Origin: Leucoraja erinacea
Lineage: Eukaryota
Length of the DNA: 64,000 nt
Assembly (NCBI RefSeq): GCF_028641065.1
Contig: NC_073415.1
Location: 11,904,001 to 11,968,000, forward strand
Reading direction: 5' to 3'
This document shows positions 1,417 to 57,978 of this stretch, piece by piece; the stretch's first letter is position 1, and every line of letters begins with the position of its first letter. The translations under genes were made by a program, and so were the position numbers. The notes beneath the pieces were generated by a model, which saw only the letters and a program-made list of their open reading frames with translations, did not search any database and was not told the origin of the DNA.

Positions 1417-3133
1417 ACCCTTCCAGCCCTGAAGTATCAGTCCAATGTTCCAGGGATTAAAATTGCTAATGTACCAGCTGAACAAAGTTCCTTTGTTAGA
1501 GGCTGTTGTTTTATTTATTTTCAAGAGGTTTGCTTTTAAATGCTCCCTATTTTTTTTGCAGTTACACCTATGTTAACTCTACATTGCATTTACATAGTCC
1601 CTGAACCATCCAACAAGTTTAATGGTTTTGTCACATGTCAGCAGTACATTTATTAATCATTTAGCATGTAGTTTTGGAGACCAGGATTGCAACATCCTCA
1701 GCTGGACTTGAACCAGAAACCAAATGCAACAATTTGCAAAAACACAAACGCTTGGTTTGCAGAATGTTTTCTCTCTGCTGCAGCAAGATAACGCTATTAA
1801 CTGTAACAAACTGTGAGCTGAGCTTGTTTGTCACAATTACCAGCAGTGATGTTAGCAGTGGGCCTTATCTAACCACACATGTGTCTCCGTTGATGACTGG
1901 GAATGGGCATGGGAGCCTCTGGATAAGGGCTGGCTGACAAGTGTGGACAGCGTTGTAATTCATTGATTTCATGTTTGTGTCTCTGGATGACCTGCTCTCC
2001 ACCTTCCATTCGGAGAGACGCAGAGAGTTGTGGTCCCTGGGACTGCACCCAATGTTCCCCGAATCTGCCTTATCTAGTGTTGTGGATGAGAAAACAAGTC
2101 CAGGTACACAGGAGATACAGGTCCTTGTATAGTGGGGATTCAGAGCATGATTCCAGTGTGGTCAGGCCATTTGGCCCACTATGCCTCGTGCTAGATCTGT
2201 GCCAGAGTAACTTCAGTTCCACCCTATAACAGTAAACAACAACAAACTTGACTTGCGTAAACCTGACTCTGCAAATTTTTAAAGCAGTTCTCAAGATGAT
2301 GACACAATAATAAGATATTAGCGTTGTTTATTGACTAGTACGTGGCGCCTTCATGCCCACGTTGGTGTTTGCAAACTGCCTATCACCACTGACCACTTGC
2401 TCCAGCCCCACATTGAGGTTCAGCCACAAGAGCTCAATAACAACTCCAAGGTCAGGTGCACTAATTGGCCTCATCTGCACAGGGGTTATGATCGGTGAGA
2501 ATGTGGGTAAAAGGGGCTTTCTGTCATGGTCCTATAAGTGGATACAGTATGTACTGTATAGACACAAATGCTGGAGTAACTCAGCGGGACAGGCAGCATC
2601 TCTGGAGAGAAGGAATGGTGACGTTTCAGGTCGAGACCCTTCTTCAGACTGAATTATTGACACGTGTCATGTTACAAACAAGGAATCTCTGACTGAAGGA
2701 GAATTCTTTTAGGAAAGGAACCCTTATGTAGACGGCAAGAAACTTTTTCCCCAGGGTGGAACTGTCAATTATTAATGGACATCGCTTTTAGGGCAAGGTT
2801 TAAAGGAGATATGTGGGGCAAGTGGTTGGGTGGGGGCGTTGAAGAGGCTTTTAGACGGGCACGTGGATATGCAGGAAAATGGATCACGTGCGGGCAGAGG
2901 GGGATAGTATATCTTGGCATCATGTTGGGCACGGACATTGTGGGCTGAAGGGCCTGTTCCTGTGCCGGACTGTTCTGTGTATCCCAATGTCTGCTTGTCA
3001 TTGAAAACAATGGGAGCTGTTCCCTGACACCCAGATTATCCCACCCCCCCCAATCTCAACCTACCCCCCCCCCCCCCCCCCAATCCTCCCACCCGCACTG
3101 TATCTGTAAACTAAACCCAACGTCTCTTGCCAG

Positions 3134-3263
3134 TCCTACAGGTAACAACAGTAGCAGCGGACAAGTTGAAATGCTTCACGCAGACTCTGGAGGACTTCAC
3201 CTGCGTGTGGGACGAGCAGGACAGGAGCGACGGCAGGCAGTACCGCTTCTTCTACCAGTACCA
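3134..3263 (+). CDS. EPOR: EPOR exon 2 (D1, first Cys pair)
   Basis: ttgccag acceptor; LQVTTVAADKLKCFTQTLEDFTCVWDEQDRSDGRQYRFFYQY resembles human LLCFTERLEDLVCFWEE...YSFSYQL; GTAGGT donor, phase 2. Confidence 0.9.
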
Positions 3264-3276
3264 GTAGGTAGTCCGA

Positions 3277-3695
3277 GCCCCTGCCCCAGTCTGGCACCAG
3301 CCCCTGCCCCAGTCTGGCACCAGCCCCTGCCCCAGGGCGATACCAGCCCCTGCCCCAGGGCGACACCAGCCCCTGCCCCAGTCCGGCACCAGCCCCTGCC
3401 CCAGTCTGGCACCAGCCCCTGCCCCAGCCTGGCACCAGCCCCTGCCCCAGTCTGACACCAGCCCCTGCCCCAGGGCGATACCAGATACCCCTGCCCCAGG
3501 GCGATAGCCCCTGCCCCAGCACCAACCCCTGCCCCAGTCTGGCACCAGCCCCTGCCCCAGTCTGGCACCAAGCCTGGCACCAACCCCTGCCCCAGTCTGG
3601 CAGCCCCTGCCCCAGTCTGGCACAAGCCCTGCCCCAGTCTGGCACCAACCCCTGCCCCAGTCTGGCACCAGCCCCTGCCCCAGGGCGATACCAGC
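3277..3695. repeat. ~23-bp minisatellite (GCCCCTGCCCCAGTCTGGCACCA) at the start of EPOR intron 2
   Basis: Direct reading; explains the repetitive ORFs at 3136-3724. Confidence 0.95.
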
Positions 3696-4338
3696 GTGCC
3701 TCTGAGTGACTGACACCCTCTCACACCAGGGCAGGGCAGCCGATGGCTTGACCAGCAGGCACTCTCAGACTCACCTGTAGCATTGACCAGTTTGGGGATG
3801 GATCAGTGTGGATAATAAAGGCTGGCATTGGCAGCAATCTCCGCAACTGGTGAAAGTATAAAAGCTGCTCCAGAACCTCTCGTGGCATAGACACATAGAA
3901 AATAGGTGCAGGAGTAGGCCATTCGGCCCTTCCAGCCAACACTGCCATTCAATATGATCATGGCTGATAACCCAAAATCAGTACCCTATTCCTGCTTACA
4001 TAGCTAACTCTTGAATATACCCAGTGAATTGGCCTACACTGCCTTTTGTGGCAGAGAATTCCACAGATTTACAACTCTCTGGGTGAAAAAGGTTTTCCAC
4101 ACCTTAGTCCTAAATGGCCGACCCTTTATTCTTAGACTGAGCAATGCTAAACCAAAGAATTGGGGTCCACTAGAATCTTCCAGACTGACAGAACTGAGTG
4201 GGCGGAAGTTAAAGCATTTTTATATCCACCTGATGTCTCTGTGAATTAGCAGCACAGAAAGAGGCCATTCGGCCCATCGTATACTTGCCCCTGCCCTCGT
4301 TTCTCAGCTGTTCTCTGATACGTTTCTTGTTACCACAG

Positions 4339-4517
4339 GGACGGCGAAACAAAGAAAGAATGTCGACTGTCGGTGGAGACACTCGGTGGCAACACCACTC
4401 GTCACATCTGCTCTCTGCCCTTAGTGGAGGTGTCTCTGTTTGCCCCGCTGGACATCGAGGTGTTGCTGAACACCAGCATCATCATGAGCAAGAGGGACTT
4501 GTACATAAACCACATGG
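4339..4517 (+). CDS. EPOR: EPOR exon 3 (D1, second Cys pair)
   Basis: ccacag acceptor; DGETKKECRLSVETLGGNTTRHICSLPLVEVSLFAPLDIEV...LYINHM; GTAGGT donor. Confidence 0.92.
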
Positions 4518-5601
4518 GTAGGTCCATCCTTGACCATCTGCCCAATCCCTGGGGTCACTTGGTTCACGTCTAGTCCACTTGAGATCTATTCAGTTGGCCT
4601 GTAGTCCACAACCTATCAAAGCTTCATGGCCCAAGTGACAAACATCACAATGTCCAGAATCATTCTATAAATGCTGTTGGGAAAACCAGGCCATTCGGCC
4701 CATTGAATCCATACTGTTAGACTATCAGACGTATTCCCTTTGTCCCACCTTTCTCCAAACCTCTCTGCAACCTAAAACTAAGCTGTTTTCCCACTTTCAA
4801 AGTTGGATGAGGGATCTTTTGACGTGAACTCTATTTCTCTCCCCACAGACGCTGCCTTACCTGCTCAGTGTCTCCAGCAGTTTTTGTTTCAGATTGCCAA
4901 TATTTTGATTTCCAAAAAGGGACAATTGTGTGCCCCACCCACTCACCCTCTCTCTGTGACCCTGTAATTATTTCCCTCCCTTCAGACACATCCCACATGC
5001 TCTTCAATGCTACCTGAGATAGACATAAAATGCTGGACTAACTCAGCAGGACGTCACCCATTCCTTCTCCCCAGAGACGCTGCCTGTCCCGCTGAGCTAC
5101 TCCAGCGTTTTGTATCTATCTTCGGTTTAAACCAGCATCTGCAGTTCCTTCCTACACAATTGTATCTTCCTTCACAATTGGCCAAAGTCCCAAAACGGAA
5201 TACATACTTGTGGCAGCACAACAGAAAGGAAAACACCGTACTCTAGACACTAATGGTTCAATATATAAAAACAAACGATACAGTATAAAGCCAAAACCAA
5301 TGGCCTCCAAGTCCCTGGTGCAATCTTTGCAGTTTGTAGTTGGAAATGTATTTCTGGTGTTGAATAACTTGATGGTTGTCAGGAAGAAACTGTTCCTGAA
5401 CCTGAAGGTTAGTTTTCAGGCTCCTGCTCCTTCTTCCCGATGGCAGGAGTGAAATGAGAGTGTGGCCAGGGTGGTTTGGGATATGGGCTGAACATGGGCA
5501 GGTGGGACTGGTGTAGATGGGGCATCTTGTTGGGCATTGGGTTGAAGGGGCTGTGTCCGAGCTGTGTGGCTCTGTATCTAACTGTGACTTCTCCTCATCA
5601 G

Positions 5602-5753
5602 TGGTGTTGGACCCTCTGACCAATGTGACAGTACGGCCAACTGGGAAAGCTGGTCAGCTTCATATCCGCTGGTCACCGCCTCCCTTTAAATACCTGGGAA
5701 ACTCCTTGATGTACGAGGTCAACTTCTCCATGGTCAGCTCCAGTGTGCAGAAG
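5602..5753 (+). CDS. EPOR: EPOR exon 4 (D2 start)
   Basis: catcag acceptor; VVLDPLTNVTVRPTGKAGQLHIRWSPPP...MYEVNFSMVSSSVQK; GTACTG donor. Confidence 0.93.
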
Positions 5754-5774
5754 GTACTGGTCGCAGTCTGCCCG

Positions 5775-7202: not shown

Positions 7203-7290
7203 ATCTGGACCCGCTGATCATCAGTCTGACCACCGTGCTCATCCTGATCATTGCCCTGCTGCTGCTGACGGTTCTCCTCTCCCACCGCAG
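7203..7290 (+). CDS. EPOR: EPOR exon 6 (transmembrane helix)
   Basis: DLDPLIISLTTVLILIIALLLLTVLLSHRR, close to human DLDPLILTLSLILVVILVLLTVLALLSHRR; 88 nt. Confidence 0.95.
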
Positions 7291-8026: not shown

Positions 8027-8335
8027 GTAAATACTTCTCATTCTCCTCCGTCCACCACCTGTGGAGGCCAAGTCAGTGGGTATATTTAAAACAGTGATTG
8101 AAGGATTCCCGATTTGACGGGTGTCAGAGGTTATACGGAGAAGGCAGGAGAATGGGGTTAGGAGGGAGAGATAGATCAACCATGATTGAATGGCGGAGTA
8201 GACTTGATGGGCCGAATGGCCTAATTTATGGCTTTTTCCACTCTCTCTCGTGATTGTCTGCCCCGTTGTCACCTTCCCCTCAGCCAACAATGAAGCGTAG
8301 AACACATTCCTTTTCTCCAGAGTTGCTGCTGGTCG

Positions 8336-8670
8336 CACTGAGTTACTCCAGCATTGTGTCTCTCTTCACTGAGTTACTCCAGCATGTGTCTCTCTTCACT
8401 GAGTTACTCCAGCATTTGTGTCTCTCTTCACTGAGTTACTCCAGCATTGTGTCTCTCTTCACTGAATTACTCCAGCATTGTGTCCATCTTCACTGAGTTA
8501 CTCCAGCATTGTGTCTCTCTTCACTGAGTTACTCCAGCATTGTGTCTCTCTTCACTGAGTTACTCCAGCATTGTGTCCATCTTCACTGAGTTACTCCAGC
8601 ACATGTGTCCATCTTCACTGAGTTACTCCAGCATTTGTGTCCATCTTCACTGAGTTACTCCAGCATTTGG
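8336..8670. repeat. ~31-bp tandem array (CACTGAGTTACTCCAGCATTGTGTCTCTCTT) derived from the fold-back element arm
   Basis: Unit matches the CTGAGTTACTCCAGCATTTTGTGTCTATCTT segment of the dispersed element. Confidence 0.9.
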
Positions 8671-8746
8671 TGTCTATCATTTCCAGTGTGCTAACTGCAC
8701 CATGTCCACTTTCCCTGTGAGTGACTGCACTGTTTCCTCTCTGCAG

Positions 8747-17225: not shown

Positions 17226-18288
17226 CTCTCCCCTCACCTTAAGCCTGTGCCCTCTAGTTTTAGAATCCTCTACCCTGAATAGAAAGAGTTCACTCTATCC
17301 TTGTCACTGTGACCATACGTATCATGTGAGACAACACACCACACAAATAGTGAAAGGCCTGGATAGAGTGGATGTGGAGAGGATGTTTCCACTAGTGGGA
17401 AAGTCTGGGACCAGAGGGCACAGCCTCAGAATTAAAGGAAGTCCCTTTAGGAAGGAGATGAGTAATTTATTTAGTCAGAGGGTGATGAATCTGTGGAGGA
17501 CAAGTTAATGGATAATGGATACCTCGGTACACGTGACAATAAACTCAACTAACTAGATTTTTGATTCGTACGGGTGTCACGGGTTGTGGCTGTGGGGAGA
17601 AGGCAGAATGCAGTTGGGAAGGAGAGATAAATCCGCCATAATTGAATGTCGGAGTAGACTCGATGGGCTGAATGACCCAATTCTGAATGAATGAAGATTG
17701 TATTGTCACGTGAAATTCTTTGCAAATTCTTTGCTTGCATTCGCATGGTATGCATATAGCCGCCACATAAGGGCGATGACAGTTGTAAAGTCTCTCCCCC
17801 CCCCCCCATACCCCGACCTTGGAGCCAGCACCACCATTCAATATGATCATGGTTGATCATCTAAACTCAGTAGATACTAAAAGCTTGAGTAACTCAGCAG
17901 GACAGGTAGCATCTCTGGAGAGAAGGATTTGGGTGACTTCTCTTCTGTGTGAAGATGGGTCTCGACCCGAAACGTCACCCATTCCTTCTCTGCAGAGATG
18001 CTGCCTGTCCTGCTGAGTTACTCCAGCATTTTGTGTCTACCTTCGATTTAAGCCAGCATCTGCAGTTCTTTCCTACACATCTGAAATCAGTACCACTTTC
18101 CTGCTTTCTGCCCATTTCCCTTGGTTCCGTTAGGCCAAAGAGCTAAATCTAACTCCCTTGAAAACATCCAGTGAATTGGCCTCCACCACCTTCTGTGGCA
18201 GCGAATTCCACTAAATATTGCTCACTTCTGACCGAGCGGTGGGTGACCTGTGGTACTGGGGCAGAGGGCGAGGCTGGCTCTGATATAC

Positions 18289-23224: not shown

Positions 23225-23341
23225 ATCGACACTTTTATGAGGAGAACATACCATTTACATGTTTGGACGGCTCCAAGACTATTCCATTCCACGAGGTGAA
23301 CGATGATTACTGTGACTGCAGAGACGGCTCAGATGAACCAG
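23225..23341 (+). CDS. PRKCSH: PRKCSH coding exon 2
   Basis: [39 protein letters not shown] (LDLa-like); 117 nt. Confidence 0.96.
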
Positions 23342-23551
23342 GTTAGTGCTGCCTCTTTGCCTCTTGCGGCACCTCCTGGTGGCGCATCGTATTATTGCAG
23401 GTAGCATCTGAGACCCACAGCCTGACATTTGCACACAAAACATGTCCAGTGGATAATTGAAGTGTCCTTGGTCATCAATTATTAACCCTAAAAAACGACA
23501 CAAACAGCTGGAGTAGCTCTGCGGGACGGGAACGGGATGGTAAGTTTGAGT

Positions 23552-23580
23552 CTGAAGAAGGGTCTTGACCCGAAACGTCA
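23552..23580 (+). ncRNA. Minimal type-I hammerhead-ribozyme-like core
   Basis: CTGAAGA-A-GGGTC(TT)GACCC-GAAAC-GTC-A: boxes CUGAnGA and GAAA, 5-bp stem II, palindromic ACGT stem III, GUC triplet; stem I is short. Confidence 0.5.
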
Positions 23581-24649
23581 CCCATTCCTTCTCTCCAGAG
23601 ATAGACACAAAATGCTGGAGTAACTGCGGGACAGGCAGCATCACTGGAGAGAAGGAATGGGTGACGTTTTGGGTCGAGACCCTTCAGATGCTTTAGTTGC
23701 ACTTTTCTCCTGAGGGTTTCATGAGAACAAACTTTATTCCATACCTTAAATTTCTGAATTCTGTGAAAGAGAATTTCCTTTTCTCGAACTGCTGTAATGA
23801 GGCCTATTGTTAATGGACAGGAACGCAGGCATTTTCCAAGGCCAGTACGCTATAACCATATAACCATATAACAATTACAGCACGGAAACATGGCCCACGG
23901 AGAATGAAATTCCAAATAGTGATTGGAATTTCTGTAAATAATTTTTTGACCAAGTTCTGTGCACTTGCCTGTTTCATTCTCCGTGGGCCATTGTGGAGTT
24001 AATTTCTAAAACATCCGAGGGCTGAGACAGTAAGTGCCAGATTTGCAAACATTGATCCGATGTCTGGTGAAATATATTTACCAGGTAAAGCAGCATCAAT
24101 GATCTTTCCAGAAAACCTAACAACTAGTATTAGTTTAAGTTCACTGAGTTTGGGGCAAATGATTTCACAAAAATTTGCAGCTGGGCGACATGTGAAACTT
24201 AAGATTCACATTTAAGTAATCGTGGCATGTCATGTAATTTTAAAATAGTTTTTTAAATTGCAGCTTGAATTGTCTCAGGTTCTCTCCAGACGTGCTATCT
24301 TTAAACCTGTTTCTGGTGATCTTTCAAGTGTTGTTTGCAGATTTATTTTTGGCCAGAAGTCTGAATGTAAGACTGTCGCTTACTTTCAAGTGCAAATTTA
24401 ATTTGCCTGCAGATTTGTTAATGTATCTGATATTAAACCTGCCTGTTCCTTGTGGCGCGGTCGATAGTTGTGTGATAGAACTGTGAGTCTCCTCTGTCTT
24501 ACAGTGTGGATGCTGGTTAAAACACAAAAGGGACAAATTGCTGGAGTAACTCAGCGGGTCAGGCAGCATCCCTGGAGAACTTTGATGTGATGTTTCAGGT
24601 TGAGACCCTTTTTTCGTCTGAAGGGTCTCGACACAAAATGTCCATTATT

Positions 24650-24992
24650 CATGTTCTCCACAGATGCTGCCTAACCCGCTGAGTTATCCATGTTCTCCAC
24701 AGATGCTCCAGCATTACTCCAGCACTCTGAAACGTCACCTATCCATGTTCTCCACAGATGCTGCCTGACCCGCTGAGTTACTCCAGCACTCGGTGAAACG
24801 TCACCTATCCCCATTCTCCACAGATGCTGCCTGTCGCTGAGTTACTCCAGCACTCTGTGAAACGTCACCTATCCATGTTCTCCACAGATGCTGCCTGACC
24901 CGCTGAGTTACTCCAGCACTCTGTGAAACGTCACCTATCCATGTTCTCCACAGATGCTACCTGACCCACTGAGTTACTCCAGCACTCTGTCC
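24650..24992. repeat. ~64-bp tandem array, same unit as at 11.2 kb and 52 kb
   Basis: ~5 units read directly. Confidence 0.9.
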
Positions 24993-25147
24993 TAATATCG
25001 GTTTGGCCAGTCAATCACTTGGTCAACAGTCTCTGTGTCCCCAGCTCCTGCATAGTCTTCCCCCTCTGCTGGTCACACGGGAAAGCTCGCTGAGGTACTT
25101 GCATGAAGGTCGCCGTGGAAATGCCTGATCTTCTTTCTTTTTGCCAG

Positions 25148-25243
25148 GAACATCGGCCTGTCCAAACGGCAGCTACCACTGCTCAAACGCTGGCCACAGA
25201 TCTGAGTACATTCCCTCTTCCCATGTGAATGATGGCATTTGCG
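25148..25243 (+). CDS. PRKCSH: PRKCSH coding exon 3
   Basis: [32 protein letters not shown]; 96 nt; GTAAGT donor. Confidence 0.95.
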
Positions 25244-26029
25244 GTAAGTTCTTGTGCCAGGCTTGGCCAGTAATGGAACCAACTTGATCTTGGGAATGGG
25301 CTAAACTGAACCATCCTACCACAGCTAGAGAGCAATCCTAAACTACTATCTACCTCATTGGTGACCCTCGGACTATCCTTGATCGGACTTTACTGGCACT
25401 AAACATTATTCCTTTATCATGCATCTGTAAATACACTGTAAACGGTTCGATTGTAATCCTGGATTGTCTTTCCACTGACTGGTTAGCACACAACAAAAGC
25501 TTTTCACTGTACATCGTACGTGACAATAAACAAAATAACTGAACTCGCATCCTGTAATCGATGACGTTTTGCATATTTTTCCCCATCAAATAGAATTCAG
25601 TTACAGAACTCAGTAAAAATATATTTATTTTCATTTTACTGCTATCTTGCATCAGCCTCTCCCTTCATTGCACCATGTGGCATATAGCCAGCATGTTGGG
25701 GCAGTCACTGGGTCCAGGTCACCTCAATGATTATTCACTGCAGGATGAAGTAGTTCTGGCAACTTCCACAACTTTAGCTGCTGCTTGAGCTGCTGCCAGC
25801 AGAGTTGGCTGCTGGCTTGTGAACTGTCTGTAGGAGTTGCAGCAGCAGGCAATGTGGGGTCCTGGTGACCAGGGAGATGCTGCTTGAAACCTGTCTTCAT
25901 AAGTGATAGGAGCAGTACAAGGCCATTCGGCCCATCACGTTTACTCCACCATTCAATCATGGCTGATCTACCTTTCCCTCTCAACCCCATTCTCCTGCCT
26001 TCTCCCCATAACCACTGTCATCGCGCAAG

Positions 26030-29272: not shown

Positions 29273-31037
29273 GTTTGCCACCTAGAATCCCACATCTGTA
29301 CCTAATAAATACTGGCTGAGACACAAAAAGCTGGAGTAACTCAACGGTACAGGCAGCTTCTCTGGAGAGAAGGAATGGGTGAAGTTGCGGATCGACACCC
29401 TTCAAACTTAGAAGGGTCTTGACCCGAAATGTCACCTTTCTTTCTCTCCCGACATGCTGCTTGTCCCGCTGATTTACTACCTGAGTACTTTACTCTAGCC
29501 TCTACTTCTAGACTCTCCCACTAGTGGAAACGTTCTCCCCACATCCACTCTATCCAAGCCTTTCACTATTCTGTATGTTTCAATGAGGTCCCTTCTCATT
29601 CTTCTGAACTCCAGTGAGTACAGGCCAAGTGTCGCCAAACACTCATCATAGGTGGGAACACAATGAATTGTTCTCATGGGTGTAAAATGTCATCAACAAC
29701 CCTGTACAGATTTAAAAAGTCTTGCGCTTTCCCTCTCTCTTTGCCTGGATCAATAGTTGAGACAAGTTGGAGGATGATTAGCTGCCCTGTAAGTAAACAA
29801 CTTATAATTTATTTCTGCTGCTTTTCTGGGAATAGCTGTGGGATCTTTCTTCTCGCCATCTGAGTAAAACTCAGTCAGTGTTGTGTTGAGGCACTGGCCC
29901 GCTGCTGTGGGATGGGAGAATTTCCCAGACTCTGGGATGTTATTCTTCACTCATGTCCCGATGCTTCTTAGATGTTGCTCAGTATTATAAACTTGCAGGT
30001 AATGCTGGAACTAGACCGCAGCAAGTTTACCAGGTGCCAAACCAGGAAATATCTCTGGTAGTGGATTATTGGAGTTGTGCTGTGTAACTAGACTGATCAA
30101 AGGGAGTTTGTCTTCTATTTGAAAGATGAACCCTGGGCACTCTGACTGAACCCTGGGCACTCTGACTGACCTGAAGGGATGAACCCTGGGCACTCTGACC
30201 TGAAGGGATGAACCCTGGGCAGTGTGGATGTTTCTCAGCCATGGGCTTCCACCACATAGTGAGCTCCAGTGGCAGAGGGAGTAAGGGAGGGGCTTTACCT
30301 GTCCTCATGCCGTCAATAGCTCTCGCATTTACACAGTGTATTTCTCATCCTTTCGTATCTGAAATCCCCCTGTCCAAAAAAACAAAAACGCTCTCAAACA
30401 GCAAGGGGAGAGAGTTGGTGTATTCTGGTGATAACTAATGTTGGCCCGAACACCAGGAGATATTCATGCAAGAGCCAGGATAATAGACAGGATCTCACCT
30501 ATGTGTCAGAGTCCAAACAGTTTGATTCTTTAGGTTCACGTTGGGTTGGGTTGGGATTAGTTTGTAATTTTGTTCACCGCCAACCACTGCCACCTTGCCT
30601 TCTGTCAAAGTAGTGCCCGGGGATCTTTAATGTTTATCTTCAGAGAAAGGTGTGAGGCATGTTGTCAAAACACACTGCAAGGACTGCCTTGTGTACAGTC
30701 CCTGTGGGTAACAGACCCTGCAAGGGCAGCCTTGTGCAGAGGCCCTTCGGCGAACTGAGTCCATGCCAACAAGCGATCCCTGTGCACTTACACTAACCTG
30801 CACACACAAGACGATTTACAATTTTACCAATTAGTCTGCATGTCTTTGTAGTGTTGGAGGAAACCGGAGCACCCGGAGAAAAACCATGCGGCCACTGGGA
30901 GAATGTACAAACTCCGTACAGACAGCATTCGTAGTCGGGATCGGACCCAGTTCTCCGGCGCTGAGGCAGCAACTCTACAGCTGCACCATCTTTGCCCCTC
31001 ATGGTAAAGGTGTTGGTTTCACCTTGTGTTTCCACAG

Positions 31038-35430: not shown

Positions 35431-37297
35431 ACTGACAGTGGAAGCTGCCCATGAAGACCAAATGATCTCCAAGTTGCTGCTTTAACTTTGGTCATGGGGT
35501 GGGGCGGGATCGAGGGTCGGGGGTGTGAATCAGCAAATTCCAATCACTGAAAACCCCATCGGCAACAAACCAGCGTAGCCCGCTGAGTTTCTCCCGCATT
35601 TTTGTCTACCTTTAAGTAAAAATAAAATGCTTGTGTTTTTAATTGTTTGAACATTTTTGCAGGCTGGGATAGAAAAAAAAACATAGTGAGATGGAATTTC
35701 AAACCATTCTGCTTTGGAATAATTATGCAAAGAAATGATCATCTGTGTGTAACATTGTTTTGGGGCTGCAGATAGACACAAAATGCTGGAGTAACTCGGT
35801 GGGTCAGGCAGCTTCTCTGGAGAGAAGGAATGGGTGACTGCAGATTTTGGGGCTGTGGAGTTTATTGTTCATATCCTGTGAAGATCAAAGGCACCTTACC
35901 CTTCCATATCTCTGTCTCCCTTCTCCTCTGAAGAAGGGTCTCGACCCTAAACATCACCCATTCCTTCTCTCCCGAGATGCTGCCTGCCCTGCTTAGTTAC
36001 TCCAGCATTTTGTCTATTGAAGGTATTCTGGTGGCCAGGTTCTGAGAGGATTTGAAATCTCGTAAAGTTGATATTCAGAGAACAGAAGACATTTTGGCCA
36101 GTAATATTTAGTCATGAATTGATTGATTTATATCAGAGAGGAACAGCATGCAGCTGAAAGTCACCAATCCAACTTTGATCTAAATGTTCCACTGGACTGG
36201 GTGTTGGCCAGAGATGGTCAGTTTTCCTCCATAGTTGTCTTTTCGTATTACTGTTGTTATCATTTCACATTCTAAGCTTGGAAGCTTAATCTTACAAAGA
36301 GGTTGTTTTCTTGCATGTCAAGTATATTGTTCCTTTCCCCTCTCTGATCTTTTGCTCTCTCATTCTGCAATGGACCTGGATTTGCATTGCCCTCTCGGCC
36401 TGCCCTTGTATGTGTGGGCAGCAACGTCCTGGCCATCTCGCTGCACAAGCAACTCTGGTGGTATGCTAATTGTGACAGAGCAGGAATATTGCTAAGTGGG
36501 TAACTTGTGTTCCTACAGCTTAACATTGACAAGTTACTGCTGTTTTGTCTCTGTTACAAAAGACCTCGACAAAACTGAGCAACTGATTCCATTTGCATTA
36601 GTGAGAGAATGTCTGGAAATCACTGTCACAAAAACGTTCTCTTAACTCATCAAATGAAAGATGCCTCAAATCCTCGCGTGCCACTTCTGCTCCGGAAAAT
36701 GAAGAGCAGCTTGCCAGATAATAAATAATTCATGCAAGCAAATTATTTTTATACATGTGCTGGGTGCATATGATTCAGTATTGTGGTATAGCATATTTCT
36801 ACCGAGTGCTTCAGGAATACCTGGCCAAACTGGCAGTGCTCGCTCTTTAATTGGGGGGGGGGTCTTCTGATGACATCCAGCAACAGCAGCAGAGAAGCTT
36901 GCATGTTTTAAAATCAGCATCTGAAGCAAGATTATAATGTATGGCCTTGAACTTCCACTTGCAATTTGCTGTTTCTTTGTAGTATTTCCCGATTCAGTTT
37001 AGCAGCTTTTTAATGCATTTGCTGCAGCTGTCAGTATGTCCTTGACAAGAGAATGCTCACGAAACAGTATTAAGGCTTTTTTGATCATGACAAAAGACGA
37101 GTTAGCATTGTCTTATGATGGCTCTGAAATTTAGGAGCTTTCACAATGTTTTGACCTTGGGAGTGAACGATTAAACAGTGTGAGAGAAGGTAACGAGAGA
37201 GAAGCCTTTTCTAAAAATGACTAACTCGTTTTATTTATAGGTTCAATCCCGTGCCACGGTTCTTTATTTGCCGCCTAATGTGTTTTTCCTTTGACAG

Positions 37298-39797: not shown

Positions 39798-39802
39798 GTT
39801 AG

Positions 39803-40040
39803 TGAAGGAAGGAACTGCAGATGCTGGTTTAAATCGAAGTTAGACACAAAATGCTGGAGTGACTCAGGTGGGACAGGCAGCATCTCTGGAGAGAAGGAAT
39901 GGGTGATGTTTCAGGTCGACACCTTTCTTCAGAAGTGTCTTCAGTCTGAAGATGGGTCTCGACCTGAAACTTCACCCATTCCTTCTGTCCAGGGATGCTG
40001 CCTGTCCCACTGAGTTACTCCAGCTTTTTGTGTCTATCTG
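39803..40040. mobile_element. Fold-back (palindromic) non-autonomous element with hammerhead-like cores at the inner arm ends
   Basis: Left arm GGAACTGCAGATGCTGG...GACACAAAATGCTGGAG...CTTCAG; right arm is its reverse complement. Confidence 0.75.
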
Positions 40041-41167
40041 ATGTTAGTAAATCCTGGTTGCCTACAAGTTGCAGTTTATTGGTGTGCTGGATTTGTAACG
40101 TGTGTCGGCTGTTTCTCCAGGTCTGCTCCTCTGGCTGATGAGCACCAGCCTTTGTGAAGAGGCTTTCAGACATAGATTGATGGTTCCTATTCAACATGCA
40201 CACTGAGAGTCATCGACAAATTAATTTCTCCTTATTTTGGTTACATTGGTTCCAGAGAGAATCTAAGCCGAGGCTTTCTACTACGTACACCTTGGTACAA
40301 AGTTTAGTTTAGTTTAGAGATACAGCGTGGAAACAGGCCCTTCGGCCCATCGAGTCCGCACCGACCTGTGATCCCTGCACATTAACACTATCCTACGCTA
40401 GGGACATTCATGCCAACCCAATTAACCTATAAACATGAATGTGTTTGGAGTGGGTGGAAACGCAAACCCCATGTGGTCACAGGGTGAAGGTACAAACTAT
40501 ACAGACAGCGCCCACCCATAGCCAGGATCAAAGCCGGATCTCTGGCACTCTACTGCTACGCCACCATGCCGCCCAAAACATCGGTAGGTTCCTTTCCCTA
40601 AAAGTGTTCACAGAAGCCATCCGGTTTAGTTCTGTGTATCTGCATCTTAATCCATGTTTTGTTTCACTGAGATCTGGAATCGAGGACCAGGGGACATGGG
40701 TTCAAGGTGAAGGGGAAAAGATTTAATATGAATCTGAGGGGTAACCTTTTTCACACAAAGGGTGGTGGGTGTATGGAACGAGCTGCCAGAGGAGGTAGTT
40801 GATGCTGGAATTATCCCAACGTTTAAGAAACAGTTCAACAGGTATATGGATAGGACAAAGGTACACAAAAATGCTGGAGAAACTCAGCGGGTGCAGCAGC
40901 ATCTATGGAGCGAAGGAAATAGGCGACGTTTCGGGCCGAAACCCTTCTTAGGACAGGACAAGTTTGGAGGGATATGGACCAAGCACAGACAGGTGGGTCT
41001 AGTGTAGCTGGGACATGTTGGCTGGTGTGGCACAAGTTGTGTTGAAGGGCCTGTTTCCACACTATATCACTCTATGACTATGAGATCTTACTGATCTGTA
41101 CCTTGGTACATGTAATAATAAACAAAGCATTGAGCCTCTTCAAGTCATCCTTCCTCTTCCATGACAG

Positions 41168-44954: not shown

Positions 44955-45165
44955 TGAAGATAGACACGCAATGCTGGAGTATCTCAGCGGGACAGGCAGC
45001 ATCTCTGGAGAGAAGGTATGGGTGACGTTTCTGGTCGAGACCCTTCTTCAGACCAGATGTCTGAACCACAATGTCACCCATTCCTTGTCTCCAGAGATGC
45101 TGCCTGTCCCGCTGAGTTACTCCAGCATTTTGTGTCTATCTTCGGTTTAAATCAGCATCTGCAGA
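44955..45165. mobile_element. Fold-back element, same family
   Basis: GAAGATAGACAC..GCTGGAG...GGTGACGTTTC...CTTCAGACC followed by the inverted arm ending GTGTCTATCTTC. Confidence 0.75.
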
Positions 45166-45355: not shown

Positions 45356-46777
45356 GTAAGTTATTGACCCAAACTAACTCTGACGATGCAGACAAACTCC
45401 TGCTTTCTGTACCCTAACTGCCTCTGAGCCTTTCACTGAAGATACAAAAGTCTCTCCACTTAAGCTATTTAATTGTGAAAGTGCAGATGCCACATGAGGA
45501 TCTGGTTAAAGGATTCTGCTGTGTTTTATGTGAGAATGGTGTCCTTCTCTGGACCGATAGATCCTCGTTAAAGTCCATCTACCAACACTGACTGGGCGAT
45601 GGACACAGGTGTCTTTACATCTTCACTGTGACAAACCTCTCATTAACTGACTCCTCTGTGACTCTTGTTTCTCTTTTGTCTTGTATTTGCCCCGGTAGCA
45701 TGCTGTCACAACACATCACAGGGCCAAAAAGACAGATTTTAATTGCCTTCACTCCATGGCTGTGCGTATCATCTGTAGTTTCCTCACTTTAAACCTTGCA
45801 AGCTATTACCTTTCTCTATTTATGATCAAGCCCAGGGGTGTGGTATTGAGAACAATTGGTGCCCATCTCTGTCTCTCCCTGAGATGTTCTTAAATCACCA
45901 GCTTGATCCACAATGCACGGTGCAGTCTGTGGAGTGGCGGGAATGTGGGAGGAATGGTGAACCAGCAGTGGGTAGTTTGTGCATGCACTTGTCAATCTAG
46001 GGGCTGTGGGTATGGGGCTTGCTGTCTAGAGGAGCAACTGTGGTTTTGTAGATGGACATAAACTGCTGGAGTAACTCAGCGGGACAGGCAGCATCTCTGG
46101 AGAGAAGGAATGGGTGGCATTTTGGGTCGAGACCCTTGTTCCGACTCTTGGGTTGGTGTGTGTGTGTGTGTGCTAGCCGTCTGGAGGAGCGTGCTTTGTC
46201 CTGCATGCCCTTGTGTTCATTGCTGCAGAAGGCGATGGAGGCCAAGTCAATAGATATTTTTAAGACGGAGATTGACAGATTCTTGATTAATACGGGTATC
46301 AAGGGTTATGAGGAGGTGGAAGGAGAATGGAGTTGAGCGGGATAGATAGATCAGCCATGTTTCCATGGAGTAGTCACCTGATGGGCTAAATGGCTCCTCT
46401 AACTCGTGAACATGAAACAGAAGTGTTCCATTGTGTCCCTGACACGTGCCTTGTGGATACTGGACAGGCTTGGGGATGGCGGGAGGTGTGTTGTATGTGT
46501 CTGGGACCCAGCTGTAGGGAACCCAGCCCCTGGTGGCACCTTGTAGCCTCATTATGTGGCTTGCAAAGTCAAGGGTTTAGTCACCCATCATCCTTGAGAA
46601 ATTGTTTGCTGAAGGTTCAGCGGTGAAATCTGTAGAATTACCACGGGTAGGTGGTCTCACCCTCTTGGAGATTGCCTGCACTCCTCTCGCTGATCATGTA
46701 TGCCCGAGTTGTTGAAATCTTCTCAATGTGAGGAGTTTAAATGCAGTTGATCATTGAGTGTTCCAATTCTCTGATCT

Positions 46778-50813: not shown

Positions 50814-51939
50814 CAATTTAACATGGATACAACACCAATTAGCTACATCTTTGGAATGCGGGAGGAAACCCACATGGTCAGTGTGGAGAACGTACAAACT
50901 CCGTACAGACAGCATCCGTGGTCAGGATCGAACCCGGGTCTCTGTCGCTGTGAGGCAGCAACTCTACCGCTGCACTACTGTTTATTGTGACAGATTCTGC
51001 ACAAAAAATCCTCCAGCATCGGTATATGCGAAAAGTATAGCCAGCCCCCTGCCAGCCTTTGCAAGAAGGGAAAAGAGCCAAATGGTTTTGGGTAGTTTTG
51101 TCTGCGTGCTGAGCAAGTTGTTGTTGTGGAAGCTGAGGACATGGAGAGGCCACTGCAGATTTGACGGTTCTATCTCAGCAGAAAACTGCTGGCACGACCC
51201 CCTTTTTCTGCTATCTTGCTTTATCCTCTCTTTATTGTTCATCTAAACAGATGAAAGGATAGGTCAGAGCTGAGGCAGCAGCTTCTGCCAACCTCATCCT
51301 TCCAGGGGTTTGTAGCCCCCCGTCTATGAGACTGACCTAGATTAGTGAGCTGTCAGCTAAACATCAGTTCATTTGACAAACCAAAGAGATTTCTTTTTCG
51401 TTTTGAAGTTCAAGGCCTGAAACGACCAAATGAGCGAAAAGGCTTATCTGAATCTTTTTGATCGGAGTACACAGAATTGACAATGAGAGTGAATCCTTCT
51501 TTCTGCTTTGGGCTTATTTGCACCGTAAATATGTTTGGATTTTTATCAAACCCCGCGATGGAAAATTACTTTTGTATGGAAAAAGGCTCCGTTTACAGCT
51601 GCCATTTCCAACACATTTTACTTTCAAAATGGGGAGTGGGAATAACGTATTTTAAGAATCAATTGAAGTGTAAAGCATTTCTTTAATCTTGGATTGTATT
51701 GGGGTGATGCGACAGATTCTGCTGTCTGGAGATCTTATTCCAAATCAGCTGCTACTAGGTAATATTGGCAAGTGTCATGAGAAGAGGCGGGCGTTCCCCA
51801 ATGTTAGGAGGCTGCAATGGAAAGGGCAGGTTCATTAATATGTGCGTACATAGGGAGGAACTACAGATGCTGGTTTACACCGAAAATAGACACAAAATGC
51901 TGGAGTAGCTCAGTGGGTTAGACGTCTTCAGACCCAACC

Positions 51940-52540
51940 CGGAACATCACCTATCCATGTTCTCCACAGATGCTGCCTGACCCACTGAGTTACTCCAGCA
52001 CTCTATGAAACGTCACCTATCCATGTTCTCCACAGATGCTGCCTGACCCACTGAGTTACTCCAGCACTCTGTGAAACGTCACCTATCCATGTTCTCCACA
52101 GATCCTGCCTGAACAGCTGAGTTATTGTGCAGCAGCATCTATGGAGCGAAGGCTGCCTGACCCGCTGAGTTATGGTGCAGCGGCATCTATGGAGCGAAGG
52201 AAATAGGCAACGTTTCGGGCCGAAATCCTTCTGGAAATAGGCAACGTTTCGGGCCGAAACCCAAAAGGGTTTCGACCCGAAACGTTACCTATTTCCTTAG
52301 CTCCATAGATGCTGCTGCACCCGCTGAGTTACTCCAGCACTCTGTGAAACGTCACCTATCCATGTTCTCCACAGATGCTGCCTGACCCGCTGAGTTACTC
52401 CCGCACTCTGTGAAACGTCACCTATCCATGTTCTCCACAGATGCTGCCTGACCCGCGCTGAGTTACTCCAGCACTCTGTGAAACGTCACCTATCCATGTT
52501 CTCCACAGATGCTGCCTGACCCGCTGAGTTACTCCAGCAT
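51940..52540. repeat. ~64-bp tandem array with an embedded second-subfamily fold-back fragment
   Basis: Same unit as above; interrupted at ~52125-52320 by GCAGCATCTATGGAGCGAAGG-type arms. Confidence 0.85.
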
Positions 52541-53377
52541 TTTTTTTTTTTTTTTTCCCTCGGTGAACTATCACCTGCAGTTCCTTGTTTGCACACGTAG
52601 ATGGACTGCAGTTCTCTTTATTGCGCTGTTATGGGAAAGTGTGCATTTGATCTCCCTCATCTTCTCTCGGCACCATTGGCAGATGTGTTGGTGGGGTACG
52701 GGTTAGATCTACTCAGACCATTGTTGGCCATCGGCGAGGAGTGTGCTCCTTTCACCCCCTCCCCCTCGGTTTGCACTTTCACTGAAACAGGAGCCCCATA
52801 TTGAGCAATCTAATTACTAATCACAGGAGACTGCCGGATATTTAGTCACTCGCGTGTAGGGTGAAATCATCTGTTTCTGTGACCTGCTTGTCCCCTGAAA
52901 TTCTGCCCCAGTTGCTGATCCTCCCTCAGACCCATCAATCTGGCACTTTACTAGTCAGCAGCCCGGCACATTACTGCAACGGAGCACAGCAAGCTTGAGA
53001 TAACCTATTTTAATTAAATTTGCTCTTGATCCTAGTCAGCACAACGTTTTATTTAATTTTATAAATCATTCTGTAAACTTGCACCATTTTCAAATTGGAA
53101 AAAAAGATTTGCCATGTTTCTATTTTTTTTTAAACTGTGTAGTGAGACTTAAAAAAAAAAAATGTCTGGTCATGAAATATGGAGTGGCTGTGGTCCCAGT
53201 GGAGAAGGTGGTGTTTGTGTAAGTGGCCACGGCAGCTTGCATGAAGCTGGTGTCATTGTCTCAGAGGAGGGCAGGTGCTGCTTCCTGCTGGGAGGATAAT
53301 GCTGCATTTTCCAACCCGAATTGCTGCCTCTCTGCTCAAGGCTGCCGTCTTTGTGGCGCCAGAGCAGGTTGGAGCCG

Positions 53378-55210: not shown

Positions 55211-55460
55211 AGAGTCTAAAGGCACATGTAGCTCAGATTGAGGCCATTCGGCCCATTATGTCTACTAGCACATTAGCGAGTCTAGAGGCACATGTAGCTC
55301 AGATTGAGGCCATTTGGCCCATTACGTCTACTAGCACATTAGCGAGTCTAGAGGCACATGTAGCTCAGATTGGGACCATTCAACCCATCAAGTCTACTAG
55401 CATATTAGTGAATCTTGAGGCATGTGCAGCCCAGATTGGGGCCATTCAGCCCATCAAGTA
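55211..55460. repeat. 66-bp tandem repeat, ~4 units
   Basis: GAGTCTAGAGGCACATGTAGCTCAGATTGAGGCCATT...CTAGCACATTAGC; 22-aa periodicity in ORF 55132-55587. Confidence 0.85.
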
Positions 55461-55816
55461 TGCTCCTAGTGCATTCGGGAGTCTAGACCCAGATTGGAAA
55501 TGTCATCACACTTGCTTCTACATGGTCACTGATGAAACAGACGGGGGGGTGGGGGGGGGGGGGGGGGTTATGGTTGTAGTCTCATAGCTGCCATTACTGG
55601 GTCCTTTTTCTTTGTTCATTTTGGATTTTAAAAATCCCGTGATACCATGGAAAGATTTGGACTTTTCCCTGGATTCACGATACCAAACTCTGGCAGCTCG
55701 TTCAGTTACACAACTTGTGAGCCAGTCTCGTGGGTTGTATCCGCCTTGTTCTGATCCTTACTCAATGTGACATGAAACCTGCAGCCTCGTTATATCTATC
55801 TTTCATTTTCTTTCAG

Positions 55817-55886
55817 TTGCTGAAAAAGCCAGGAATGAGTTCTCTGAAGCAGAGAAATCGCTGAAAGAAGTGGAGACTTCGATTGG
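55817..55886 (+). CDS. PRKCSH: PRKCSH coding exon 12
   Basis: VAEKARNEFSEAEKSLKEVETSI. Confidence 0.93.
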
Positions 55887-57978
55887 GTAAAGTATCTAAA
55901 ATATAAACAGTTTAGCAATATGATGTTTTAGATAAAGCAACCAAAAAAAAATTGACACAAGGAAGCTGAGCAAATCAGTGAAGTTCAGAGTTCAGAAGCT
56001 ATTTGCAAATCTTTCCATTAGCTTTCATTTATTCCTTTACCGTGAAGAAAGAACAGGAATATGACCCACTGTTTGGAGAGCAGGAAAACAAAATAGTTTA
56101 AAAAAAAAAGGGTTTTCCTTGCTGGAAAGTCTAAGCAAGGCGCACAAATTATTTAGTGTAGGAAGGAACTGCAGATGCTGGTTTAAACCAAAGATGCTGG
56201 AGTAACAGCGGGACAGGCAACATTTGTCAAGAAAAGAAATGAGTGATGTTTCGGGGCACGACTCGTCTGAAGTAGTGGCTCGATCTGAAACGTCACCCAT
56301 TCCTTCTCTCCAGAGATGCTGCCTGTCCCGCTGAGTTTGTGTCTATCATAGATGATCTTTTTTTACAATGCATTAGTTTGTCCTGTAACTGACTAAGATG
56401 TGGGGAAGTTTTCCATCAGGCTGTCACTGAAGACATTGGTTAGTTAATGTGATGATGCAAGAATTGAATTGGGAGGACATGGATTTGCAAAGTTGCATGC
56501 AGATCTGGCTCACAGAAGATCCAGTCAATTATGCAATGCTTTTATATCGGAAATAGAATTGATTTGTTTGTGGTGGCTTTACTGTTATTGACTGGCTTCA
56601 AGATTCCTTGCATTTCATACAATGGTGAGAATCTTCTTGGGTTGGACTAGTGCATCTCTAACCCTCCCTAAACTTCTCAACCTTCATCTGAACAGGATAT
56701 CTTCAAAGAGCCGTTCCCTTTGTATATGGATAACATTGAAAATGTTAAAAAGGAATTCAGTGAAACAGTATTTTACGGTCCCTGATAGAATTTGCCGCTT
56801 GGCTCTGAAATTAGCCCTGAAGGTACAGCAATATCTGGCTCTGGGCAGTTAATGTCCCATATCGGTTGTCGTGATCCTCTGCATTCAATGACTAATGCCA
56901 TGAAAGTGGTTGAGCGCCCAATCCTGTTGAGTTATTGCGTCATTTTGCATGACTCTATGGCAAGTCAGTGCCTCTCACTGGCTGTGAATAGCTCAATGCC
57001 AGAATGTGTATAGGAACGCCACTGCCCTCACCTCCATCACCATCACGATTTCACTTACCTCTACCATGTGAACCAAGTGAGTTTGCTCACACAAAGCTTG
57101 CAGAGATGATTCATTTGCTCCCTGGTTTCTGTTCTGACCTAATTTTCTTCTGCAGTCCCTGGGGTGGGACGAATGAGCATGTGTGAGTGGAGCGAGCTGC
57201 TAAATGAGATGCAGGAGACGGGAGAATGTCTGACGGAACATGATTCCATGTAGGATTATTCTCGCCAGAAATTGGACAGTATTTAGCTTTGCTTTTAAGG
57301 TTCCAGAGCGTTGTGTCAAAGAAAGTTATTTCCTTTTGTCTGCTGAGGGTGATGATTGCTTTGGAGCTCTGGTTGGACATGTGCCAGGAGCTCTGATACC
57401 CTGACTGTTCTTCATGCTCCAGATTAGATAGCAAGTGGTGACGAGCTGTTGCAATGCTCCTTGCCCGAGGCTGGGCTAGGCTGGCCTGGCCTGCGTGCTG
57501 GATGGTAACCAGGCACGAGTATGGCTGGCTGTTTTTGGAGTGGCAGAGATGCCACTGGCTTGTCGGGTTCTTGAATCAACAGAAGCTAATTGTCCTGTTC
57601 CTGCAGCATTGTCGATGGACAATTAAAGTATTCTAAACTACCTTCTTAGCTTGCATCAAAATATAACAAGTTTACATTTATTTGGTGCAGTAAATGCACA
57701 CAGTAAAAATGTGACACTTTACGCAAATTGATTTCTACCCAAACGCCAAAGAAAGTCATTGTCATGAAGCAGAATCTGACCCTTCTGCCCAATAGTTCAT
57801 GCCAGACATGCTGTCCAGTTAGTTTATTGTCACGTGTACCAAGGTACAGTGGAAAGCTTTTATCGTGTATTATCCAGTCAGAGGAAAGACAATACTTGAT
57901 TACAATTGAGCTATTTACAGTGTGTATACATGATAAGGGAATAACGTTTAGTGCAAGGTAAAGCCAGCAAAATCCGAT

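Follow-up and report, generated by a model that had tools for sequence, protein, structure and literature searches.

Hammerhead ribozymes in the terminal repeats (pLTRs) of Penelope-like elements (PLEs) have already been published, and as a ribozyme finding the elements described below are ordinary, their copies being predicted by folding to be silent. The minimal hammerheads of metazoan PLEs (Cervera and De la Pena 2014, PMC4209133) share with them the CUGAnGA box, the extra base before G10.1, the G10.1-C11.1 pair, the GAAA box, the palindromic 15.2-16.2 and the lack of a loop 3; they too are mostly dispersed in truncated copies, some in opposite-strand pairs. Inverted pLTRs with a one-sided tail and a target-site duplication (TSD) are published for PLEs as well (PMC8557442, PMC3846280), and the origin of tandem and inverted pLTRs and of tails has been named as open by Craig et al. 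2021 (PMC8557442). In Poseidon PAc of Anolis, two RT start sites were found in vitro, and a protein-assisted hammerhead and an uncleaved RNA substrate were reported (Frangieh et al. 2024, PMC11167929). Non-LTR retrozymes, in turn, combine a PLE-related type I hammerhead with short non-coding repeats, as the skate copies do (bioRxiv 10.64898/2026.07.22.740005).

The window analysed here, a 64,000-nt stretch of the genome of the skate Leucoraja erinacea, is rich in fold-back elements (Table 1). Positions in pLTR copies are counted from hammerhead C3 (+1). At up to 3 mismatches the 29-nt motif matches the window six times (2619-2647 -, 17949 +, 23552 +, 35928 +, 39946 +, 45023-45051 -) and gives 0 matches in each of 100 shuffles. 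Arm copies amount to 49 loci or 59 pieces, according to the BLAST setting. The pairs described as head-to-head in the original prediction are seen at 17870-18080, 39802-40039, 44956-45164 and 56156-56337. Three cores had been called intact: boxes and a 4-bp helix II stand at 23552 (+) and 2647 (-), the latter with a G-U closing pair, and these are the only window copies keeping core plus helix II; at 45023-45051 the boxes have survived, but an A in place of C11.1 removes the G10.1-C11.1 pair. The remaining cores are, as had been stated, degenerate at 17949, 35928, 39946 and 56156-56337, and truncated or degenerate at 29319-29478. Copies had also been placed inside the EPOR and PRKCSH pre-mRNAs. 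This stands for the 23552 core, which is sense and intronic because PRKCSH-like exons lie at 23239-23349 and 25144-25257 (+),. The 2647 core is antisense to EPOR, because the EPOR-like exons (3157-3267, 4319-4510) are on the (+) strand, and lies upstream of the first of them found. PRKCSH exons were located up to 25257 only, a PF13015 search for the 3' exons giving no match, and copies beyond 25.3 kb are not placed in that gene.

Table 1. Element copies and host exons in the window (arm coordinates relative to C3 in brackets)
Position	Strand	Feature	Remarks
2559..2652	-	Solo pLTR copy (-4..+91)	Core 2620-2647 intact, helix II closing G-U; antisense to EPOR
3157..3267	+	EPOR-like exon (EpoR_lig-bind)	Host context
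4319..4510	+	EPOR-like exon (EpoR_lig-bind)	Host context
5017..5158	.	Fold-back, S1 arm (-) and S2 arm (+)	Without hammerhead core; TSD none found
8302..8678	+	pLTR piece grown into 31-bp minisatellite	
17870..18080	.	Fold-back, S1 arm (-; +26..+92) and S2 arm (+; -4..+132)	Core degenerate; TSD-like duplication of 15 nt, 2 mismatches
23239..23349	+	PRKCSH-like exon	Host context
23549..23602	+	pLTR piece (-2..+51)	Intact core 23552-23579; sense, PRKCSH intron
23599..23685	-	Antisense arm (+6..+94)	Directly 3' of the 23552 piece; predicted to pair with and bury its core
24533..24990	.	Fold-back, then tandem 66-bp units (+21..+87)	Units without CUGAnGA box
25144..25257	+	PRKCSH-like exon	Host context
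29319..29478	.	Fold-back	Both cores truncated/degenerate
35770..36013	.	Inverted arm 35770-35838 and direct arm 35927-36013	About 90 nt between; core degenerate
39802..40039	.	Fold-back, S2 arm (-; 0..+130) and S1 arm (+; -4..+94)	Both cores degenerate
40858..40949	-	Solo copy (+4..+96)	Younger subfamily C
44956..45164	.	Fold-back, S1 arm (-) and S2 arm (+; +23..+117)	Core 45024-45051 in S1 arm, helix II closing pair broken; TSD-like duplication of 11 nt
46055..46146	-	Solo copy (-2..+89)	Core degenerate
51851..52543	.	Nested fold-backs (older subfamilies and C)	Two runs of 66-bp tandem units
56156..56337	.	Fold-back	Cores degenerate
57977..58157	.	Subfamily C fold-back, S1 and S2	Without core; weak 10-nt TSD-like duplication

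Sequence context identifies the arm as the terminal repeat (pLTR, 5' UTR) belonging to an autonomous Penelope-like retrotransposon of about 3.95 kb, putatively of Neptune type, a placement made from motifs and not from a tree against named references. Upstream of the arm lie the GIY-YIG C-terminus and a pyrimidine-rich UTR; at its other end it continues into the beginning of the ORF in the next tandem unit, the element ATG being at +165. It comes directly after EN and UTR in 26 of the 30 loci found with the EN peptide (counted by eye), and tandem arrays of units of 3,945-3,992 nt, each junction bearing a core, occur at L145-L148 and L150. One 812-aa frame matches RVT_1 at E 1e-6 and GIY-YIG at E 0.006, neither match quite reaching its Pfam cut-off, and the translation carries DKG, YIDD and CxxxxCxxC. 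The C-x4-C-x2-C motif of the RT-EN linker recurs at L061, L062 and L024; linker motifs of the CX2-5CxxC type are also known in Nematis, and not in Neptune alone (PMC8557442). Homologues number 1,163 at E<=1e-20, the best named ones being from sharks and rays. No unbroken ORF from ATG to EN stop was found in 14 long loci (the longest has 992 aa), and all long copies seen are broken in the N-terminal part. The PLE origin proposed at the outset is thus borne out, as is the presence in the same genome of an autonomous RT and GIY-YIG element with the same terminus, which had been marked as worth a search. The family, which may already be catalogued in Repbase/Dfam, makes up about 3.8-4% of the sampled genome, with roughly 0.8 million short pieces, and most insertions are pLTR stubs of 95-135 nt.

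The ends of the copies were surveyed in 863 kb, that is the window plus 80 stretches of 10 kb picked by position. This sample holds 524 pieces; neighbours are head-to-head in 107 cases, tail-to-tail in 7 and on the same strand in 43. The 3' ends, called from BLAST boundaries, fall at two sites about 40 nt apart, S1 at about +92 and S2 at about +131. Of 105 pairs scored, 63 could be classified at both 3' ends and were counted, and the other 42 could not; among the 63, 58 are S1+S2, 5 S1+S1 and none S2+S2, against an expected mixed share of 0.50 (P 6e-13). A TSD score of at least 8 was reached by 29 of the 58 S1+S2 pairs, the other 29 showing no TSD at this threshold, by 0 of 5 same-site pairs and by 6 of 600 shuffled pairs; the modal length is 14 nt (range 11-18 nt). 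Long insertions follow the same S1/S2 plan in either arrangement (L061, L152, L156), inverted element copies having been met at these three loci and at L157. The ends of a fold-back likely record both sides of one DNA cut, copied from two fixed RNA start points. We hold it highly probable that the repeats as a whole are pLTR copies of the autonomous element, each fold-back being likely a single insertion primed at two ends on uncleaved RNA.

Inverted arms, small size and high copy number are also features of DNA-transposon MITEs, whose terminal inverted repeats could hold a hammerhead-like word by chance. Such an origin is refuted, and retains a negligible probability: the arms are unequal by a tail of about 40 nt and variably truncated at the centre, the TSDs vary from 11 to 18 nt, the RT-GIY-YIG ORF is contiguous with the arms, and helix I covaries in relatives. 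The original prediction had rather envisaged a separate non-autonomous retrozyme-like family; in such a family, self-cleaving monomers or circles would be copied in trans by the PLE protein. Short copies do far outnumber long ones, have a sharp 5' edge and TSDs of their own, and tandem 66-bp units exist; moreover, non-LTR retrozymes derive from pLTRs and are reported in one chondrichthyan in the preprint (bioRxiv 2026.07.22.740005). Yet the copies start before the core and not after the cleavage site (+29 being the start of 3 of 524 pieces), subfamilies A and C of the short copies are identical in EN-linked copies, and the 66-bp units have no CUGAnGA. Neighbours are mostly inverted (107 head-to-head vs 43 on the same strand), unlike the head-to-tail units of retrozymes, each with a complete hammerhead. 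The arms are better described as incomplete pLTR copies of the element found in tandem in the same genome, and a retrozyme family is very unlikely.

The 5' ends accumulate at -4..+1, which is the 5' edge of the hammerhead: 160 of the 524 pieces begin within -8..+3, next to ordinary flank or to the partner arm, and 59 carry UTR. By a narrow preference we read this wall as the RNA's own 5' end at the initiator-like TCAGT, and therefore the copies of 95-135 nt as run-off products, like strong-stop DNA. Alternatively, the wall could be a barrier to RT or to joining, the short copies stemming from the 3' pLTRs of read-through RNA. RT might halt at a protein-bound pyrimidine tract, or cDNA ends might anneal via the near-palindrome TCAGTCTGA at -4..+4; a tract of about 120 nt ending in CAG does lie just upstream of the core, the near-palindrome is there, PMC3846280 notes palindromes at the 5' ends of pLTRs, and there is little cap-G signal (27 of 79 ends carry an additional, cap-like G vs 24 expected, not significant overall). 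Long copies, however, readily cross the pyrimidine tract, and solos (97) show the wall no less clearly than fold-backs (63). A barrier is conceivable, at clearly under even chances. The 23 of 46 GT/AGT ends with an extra G were singled out post hoc, and a cap-derived G was set aside, the excess being not significant over all ends. A DPE at the spacing of Drosophila LINEs misfits by eye if the A of TCAGT is +1. A splice-gated ribozyme, with polypyrimidine tract and CAG as in the D. virilis Penelope, was likewise discarded, 70 solos having no shared upstream exon. No GT..AG joint into the core occurs among the 15 joints listed (87 more exist); a very short exon 1 is conceivable.

The consensuses of six subfamilies all have the core boxes, the extra base 9/10.1, G10.1-C11.1, the palindromic helix III stub and the NUH, in agreement with the minimal type I hammerhead with an ACGU mini helix III first proposed; in the oldest, A replaces G16.2, which lies in a CpG. 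Across these consensuses none of 11 core positions varies, vs 19 of 62 at +31..+92, and both helix changes among consensuses keep pairing. Among copies, which were chosen for aligning through the core, divergence is slightly lower in the core (6.2% vs 8.5%, P 0.035). An Rfam scan gave no hammerhead match down to E=10, the matches being hairpin noise. Helix I is 2 bp and helix II 4 bp in the skate copies. In metagenome relatives with the same core helix I, which was outside the search pattern, is mostly 3-6 bp and covaries; its pair 2 is of Watson-Crick type in 29 of the 35 flank types, against a mean of 11.6 in shuffles. No older family with a longer helix I emerged in the skate genome from 803 CTGATGA matches, the 30 loci examined being variants of the same subfamilies. 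It is likely that the hammerhead is kept in the active lineage, where cleavage would require a dimer or the element protein, and that dispersed copies are decaying passengers.

Dispersed copies might nonetheless act on host RNA, by co-transcriptional cutting, as trans dimers, or as intronic hairpins for ADAR or Dicer. Intact cores number 44 in 863 kb, hence about 7e4 genome-wide (44/524 x 0.8 million), arm sequence is abundant in RNA reads (raw runs assigned by species label), and the family puts long hairpins, as predicted for the fold-backs, into introns. In turn, the core has been lost from 162 of the 206 copies that span it, and published minimal hammerheads cleave poorly by the account in PMC4209133. 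Helix I has 2 bp, folding predicts inactive monomers, and the doubt voiced about activity was well placed. The hammerhead fold lies 6-9.5 kcal/mol above the MFE without the partner arm, 8-12 above the dimer MFE in an explicit dimer, and 25.6-43.6 in three folded window hairpins. Self-cleaving fold-back RNAs with one core per strand had been envisaged; cleavage is not favoured by the head-to-head form, and a fold-back could not form a cis dimer, because it has one sense core per strand, and this is predicted to be paired to the antisense arm. In RNA reads neither starts nor ends accumulate at -2 or +28, but an accumulation would be masked by libraries of this kind and by the mass of passenger copies. 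Dispersed copies are predicted not to cut host pre-mRNA, and an action on host RNA is improbable.

In the two-end-primed insertion that we favor, the endonuclease would nick both target strands about 14 nt apart; the two 3'-OH ends would prime at different sites, S1 and S2, a single dimeric RT-EN particle probably serving both, and both cDNAs would extend toward the RNA 5' end and be joined there. Taken together, these steps are fairly probable. The template would be uncleaved element RNA, twin-primed from two RT start sites, and pLTRs would arise after a strand transfer. The stricter version, one particle on a 14-nt staggered cut with always one prime per fixed site, and uncleaved RNA starting 3 bases before the hammerhead, has about an even chance. 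If true, the stubs are the strong-stop DNAs of a third retroelement class, and the genome preserves paired records, their number in the order of a hundred thousand, of the making of PLE inverted repeats, tails and pLTRs. The value of the finding is mechanistic, the S1+S2 rule and the 5' wall being counted in-genome predictions for in vitro test. A literature search by title or abstract retrieved no PLE-mechanism paper on twin priming with inversion; no paper on Penelope-like strong-stop tails was retrieved either, and a search on Penelope GIY-YIG dimer cryo-EM gave only unrelated papers. The shark and skate papers retrieved do not mention the hammerhead ribozyme.

Relative to the hammerheads of PMC4209133, helix I is shorter (2 bp vs 4-5 bp in S. 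mansoni, 2 bp occurring there only in a D. virilis variant), helix II differs in having 4 bp, and intact cores, about 7e4, exceed the 4,000-9,000 reported for coelacanth and Xenopus; shark or skate terms are missing from the supplements searched. With the Neptune EN+ PLEs, as described in PMC8557442 and PMC3846280, the element shares the RT followed by a C-terminal GIY-YIG, the CX2-5CxxC linker, the DKG motif, partial tandems, and inverted 5'-truncated copies with a 30-40-nt tail at one end and a TSD. It differs in that most copies are 95-135-nt stubs, the tail rule is near-strict (58/63), and the arm is 5' UTR without ORF overlap. Poseidon PAc belongs to another clade and its ORF begins inside the hammerhead; it likewise has two internal RT start sites defining the tail, lying in AC-rich sequence near a stem-loop as a further likeness, an uncleaved template and the cutting of both strands, whereas paired use of the two sites at both ends of one insertion is not shown in the available parts of that report (PMC11167929). 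Non-LTR retrozymes are head-to-tail tandems with a hammerhead per unit, whereas the skate copies are solos and inverted pairs (bioRxiv 10.64898/2026.07.22.740005).

In L1 twin priming both ends of a staggered cut serve as cDNA primers and an inversion results within one TSD, as proposed for the skate insertions. The second L1 primer copies a non-overlapping upstream part; in the skate element, in contrast, both ends would copy one and the same stretch, starting from two fixed sites separated by about 40 nt.

The arms, repeats of ~100-130 bp found singly (solos) or head-to-head (fold-backs), are terminal-repeat (pLTR) stubs of a Neptune-type Penelope-like element (PLE) with a minimal hammerhead; they are mostly decayed and predicted inactive, and the kind is already known. 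A search for an autonomous PLE (RT plus GIY-YIG) with the same terminus, as suggested in the original prediction, retrieved an RT-EN element linked to the arm in the same genome. Genome matches of the arm revealed a GIY-YIG C-terminus encoded upstream of it at some loci. A search with the GIY-YIG peptide turned up 52,842 first-look candidates; 150 of them went on to scoring, and 30 loci were kept. In 26 of the 30, counted by eye, a stop codon and a pyrimidine-rich UTR precede the arm. In the long frames RVT_1 matches at E 1e-6 and GIY-YIG at E 0.006, each slightly short of its curated cut-off; DKG, YIDD and a C-x4-C-x2-C linker are also present. Homologues at E<=1e-20 number 1,163, the best named ones coming from sharks and rays (59-72%). 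Walking upstream from the N-terminal part of the ORF leads to the arm again. At five loci, L145-L148 and L150, units of 3,945-3,992 nt stand in tandem; every junction carries a core, and the ATG is at +165. The arm thus serves each unit as 5' UTR while also forming the 3' end of its predecessor; the arm is the element's pLTR.

No unbroken ORF was found in the 14 long loci examined. The N-terminal third is Pro/Ala/Thr-rich, of low complexity and free of Pfam matches, and is broken in every long copy; the break may reflect misassembly, decay of the copies or a programmed shift. A small sample (40 stretches of 10 kb, length-weighted across contigs) gives a genome-wide estimate of ~795,000 pieces, or 3.8% of bases. 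Arm density is about twofold higher on smaller chromosomes, with 133 pieces per 200 kb in stretches L124-L143 and 64 in L104-L123.

Positions are numbered from the C of CUGAAGA (hammerhead C3, +1), and cleavage is predicted between +28 and +29. The window hosts 49-59 arm pieces, varying with search settings, and the fold-backs reported there were all found in place. The hammerhead motif has six matches at <=3 mismatches and none in 100 shuffles; no hammerhead match emerged when the window was checked against the Rfam model. Three cores had been regarded as intact. Those at 23552 (+) and 2647 (-) are the only window copies in which both the core boxes and helix II (4 bp) survive; the one at 45023-45051 has lost the G10.1-C11.1 pair. 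Copies had likewise been assigned to PRKCSH and EPOR pre-mRNAs; the 23552 core lies indeed between same-strand PRKCSH-like exons, but the 2647 core is antisense to EPOR, because the EPOR-like exons are on the plus strand.

Other repeats occur in the window. One minisatellite has grown from an arm piece, and arms frequently reside in or beside repeats of two dispersed families, D15 and D16, which seem to resemble a shark SINE and CR1-type LINE tails. The 66-bp tandem units are 97-100% alike between loci, yet their sequence type is that of an older subfamily; they retain GAAACGUC, without CUGAnGA, and are possibly a young non-autonomous derivative.

Positions of arm-related features and neighbouring repeats
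Feature	Sequence	Positions	Remark
66-bp tandem units	window	11210-11379, 24725-24990, 51937-52124, 52340-52543	arm +21..+87
66-bp tandem units	locus L169	2473-2736	arm +21..+87
66-bp tandem units	locus L177	7243-7440	arm +21..+87
Minisatellite, 31 bp	window	8302-8678	from arm piece
Minisatellite, 23 bp	window	3253-3740	
Minisatellite, 13 bp	window	5659-6450	
Minisatellite, 18 bp	window	18695-19324	
Minisatellite, 33 bp	window	38489-39037	
D15 repeats	window	11810-11898, 13098-13186, 26056-26144, 61649-61737	
D16 repeats	window	8185-8252, 14223-14290, 28946-29013	
ORF N-terminal third	locus L062	3356-4518	
ORF N-terminal third	locus L145	3780-5183	
Predicted stem around S1	locus L145	3614-3750	also in subfamily A reference

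The motif shows every feature ascribed to minimal PLE hammerheads by Cervera and De la Pena (PMC4209133). Clustering of 216 copies yielded six subfamilies of at least 14 members. The original prediction had named excess conservation of the core over the rest of the arm as a test, and across the six consensuses the core varies at 0 of 11 positions, the downstream region at 19 of 62 (P ~0.03, hand calculation). Changes among subfamilies affect loop 2, H17 (C to U) and two helix positions (U-A to U-G); in the oldest consensus the helix III stub also carries a single change of CpG type. The L. erinacea copies have a helix I of 2 bp. Scanning metagenome contigs with the core alone matched at least 124 stretches, 80 of which were examined. 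Among the matches listed, helix I, which lay outside the search pattern, is mostly 3-6 bp. Of 35 distinct flank types, 31 have a Watson-Crick pair 1, 29 a Watson-Crick pair 2 and 24 a Watson-Crick pair 3; shuffling gives averages of 23.6, 11.6 and 11.3, and 0 of 1,000 shuffles reached the observed counts. With helix I paired in these relatives, the motif is, as judged from sequence, a genuine hammerhead by descent. Three metagenome contigs of distant relatives (L264, L270, L293) also contain hammerheads arranged head-to-head, separated by a few tens of bases.

Cleavage by present copies seems disfavored by predicted folding. Relative to the MFE, the hammerhead fold costs 6.1-9.5 kcal/mol in monomers and 25.6-43.6 kcal/mol in three window hairpins; in the 23552 hairpin (41.8 kcal/mol) the core would be buried by 23599-23685. 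The explicit dimer exceeds the dimer MFE by 8-12 kcal/mol. The core is kept in 44 of the 206 copies covering it. Divergence among copies is slightly smaller in the core, at 6.2% vs 8.5% (P 0.035), in copies pre-selected for alignment through the core. According to PMC4209133, lone minimal hammerheads did not cleave in published tests, and dimers were weakly active; the hammerhead of PAc, the Poseidon element of Anolis, depended on protein, and insertion in vitro proceeded without it (PMC11167929). RNA data on L145:3000-4400 comprised one contig set and three 2026 runs chosen by a shared species label, which may not be this species. In one data set (X24) the arm is ~100-fold deeper than the UTR immediately upstream, orientations are equal, and 94% of mapped reads continue into unlike sequence, as expected of passenger copies within host transcripts. 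No read-end pile was found anywhere on L145:3000-4400, a result compatible both with cleavage and with its absence.

Ends of copies were analyzed in the window plus 80 stretches of 10 kb chosen by position (863,457 bases, small chromosomes enriched). The 3' ends fall into two groups, S1 (+84..+102) and S2 (>=+111, peak +130..+132); solos end at either site (123 S1, 86 S2). Neighbours among the 524 pieces are head-to-head in 107 cases, tail-to-tail in 7 and same-strand in 43. Two head-to-head pairs at stretch edges were left out; of the 105 scored, 42 had an unclassifiable end. The 63 classified fold-backs include 58 S1+S2, 5 S1+S1 and no S2+S2 pairs (P 6e-13). S1+S2 pairs lie inside a single target duplication (TSD): scores >=8 were obtained for 29 of the 58, compared with none of the 5 same-site pairs and 6 of 600 shuffled ones. 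Fold-back TSDs are mostly 11-18 nt (mode 14), and TSDs also flank solos (23 of 201 at score >=9; controls 0 of 600). Long insertions follow the same plan by eye, the tail being on the direct copy in L061 and L152 and on the inverted one in L156. A predicted stem of AGAUGCUG with CAGCAUCU encloses S1 and stops ~12 nt before S2. Its sequence is kept across all subfamilies, and it is a candidate protein-binding or RT-start structure. For the arm as a whole, the folding z-score reaches only -0.55.

At the other end, copies pile up just before the core (5' wall), 181 of 524 pieces starting at -8..+3. Excluding 21 whose upstream DNA is rich in pyrimidines and probably represents UTRs of other subfamilies leaves 97 solos and 63 fold-back arms. 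The base bias of solos is gone by -5, therefore no upstream exon is shared. The wall probably marks the RNA 5' end. The main rival explanation is a barrier to RT or to joining, set by the pyrimidine tract or by the near-palindrome at -4..+4. Another 38 pieces extend upstream past the wall, and at +29, just after the predicted cleavage site, only 3 begin; a cap-like G at the wall is not significant over all ends. In the mechanism proposed, the endonuclease would nick the target strands in a staggered fashion, both 3'-OH ends would prime, each at a different site, on one or two molecules of presumably uncleaved template RNA, and the cDNA would run off at an RNA 5' end located at TCAGT.

The general background to such a scheme is given by twin priming in L1 and by the initiator consensus. 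Literature searches, covering few subscription titles, brought up no work on PLEs that deals with paired priming or with strong-stop copies. The chief value of the arms lies in the record of the insertion mechanism. The mechanism proposed combines published parts: an inverted pLTR, with one-sided tail and TSD, in PLE insertions (PMC8557442, PMC3846280); the two RT start sites of PAc, which also cuts both strands and is predicted to form a dimer (PMC11167929); and the internal promoter described for D. virilis Penelope (PMC2377424).
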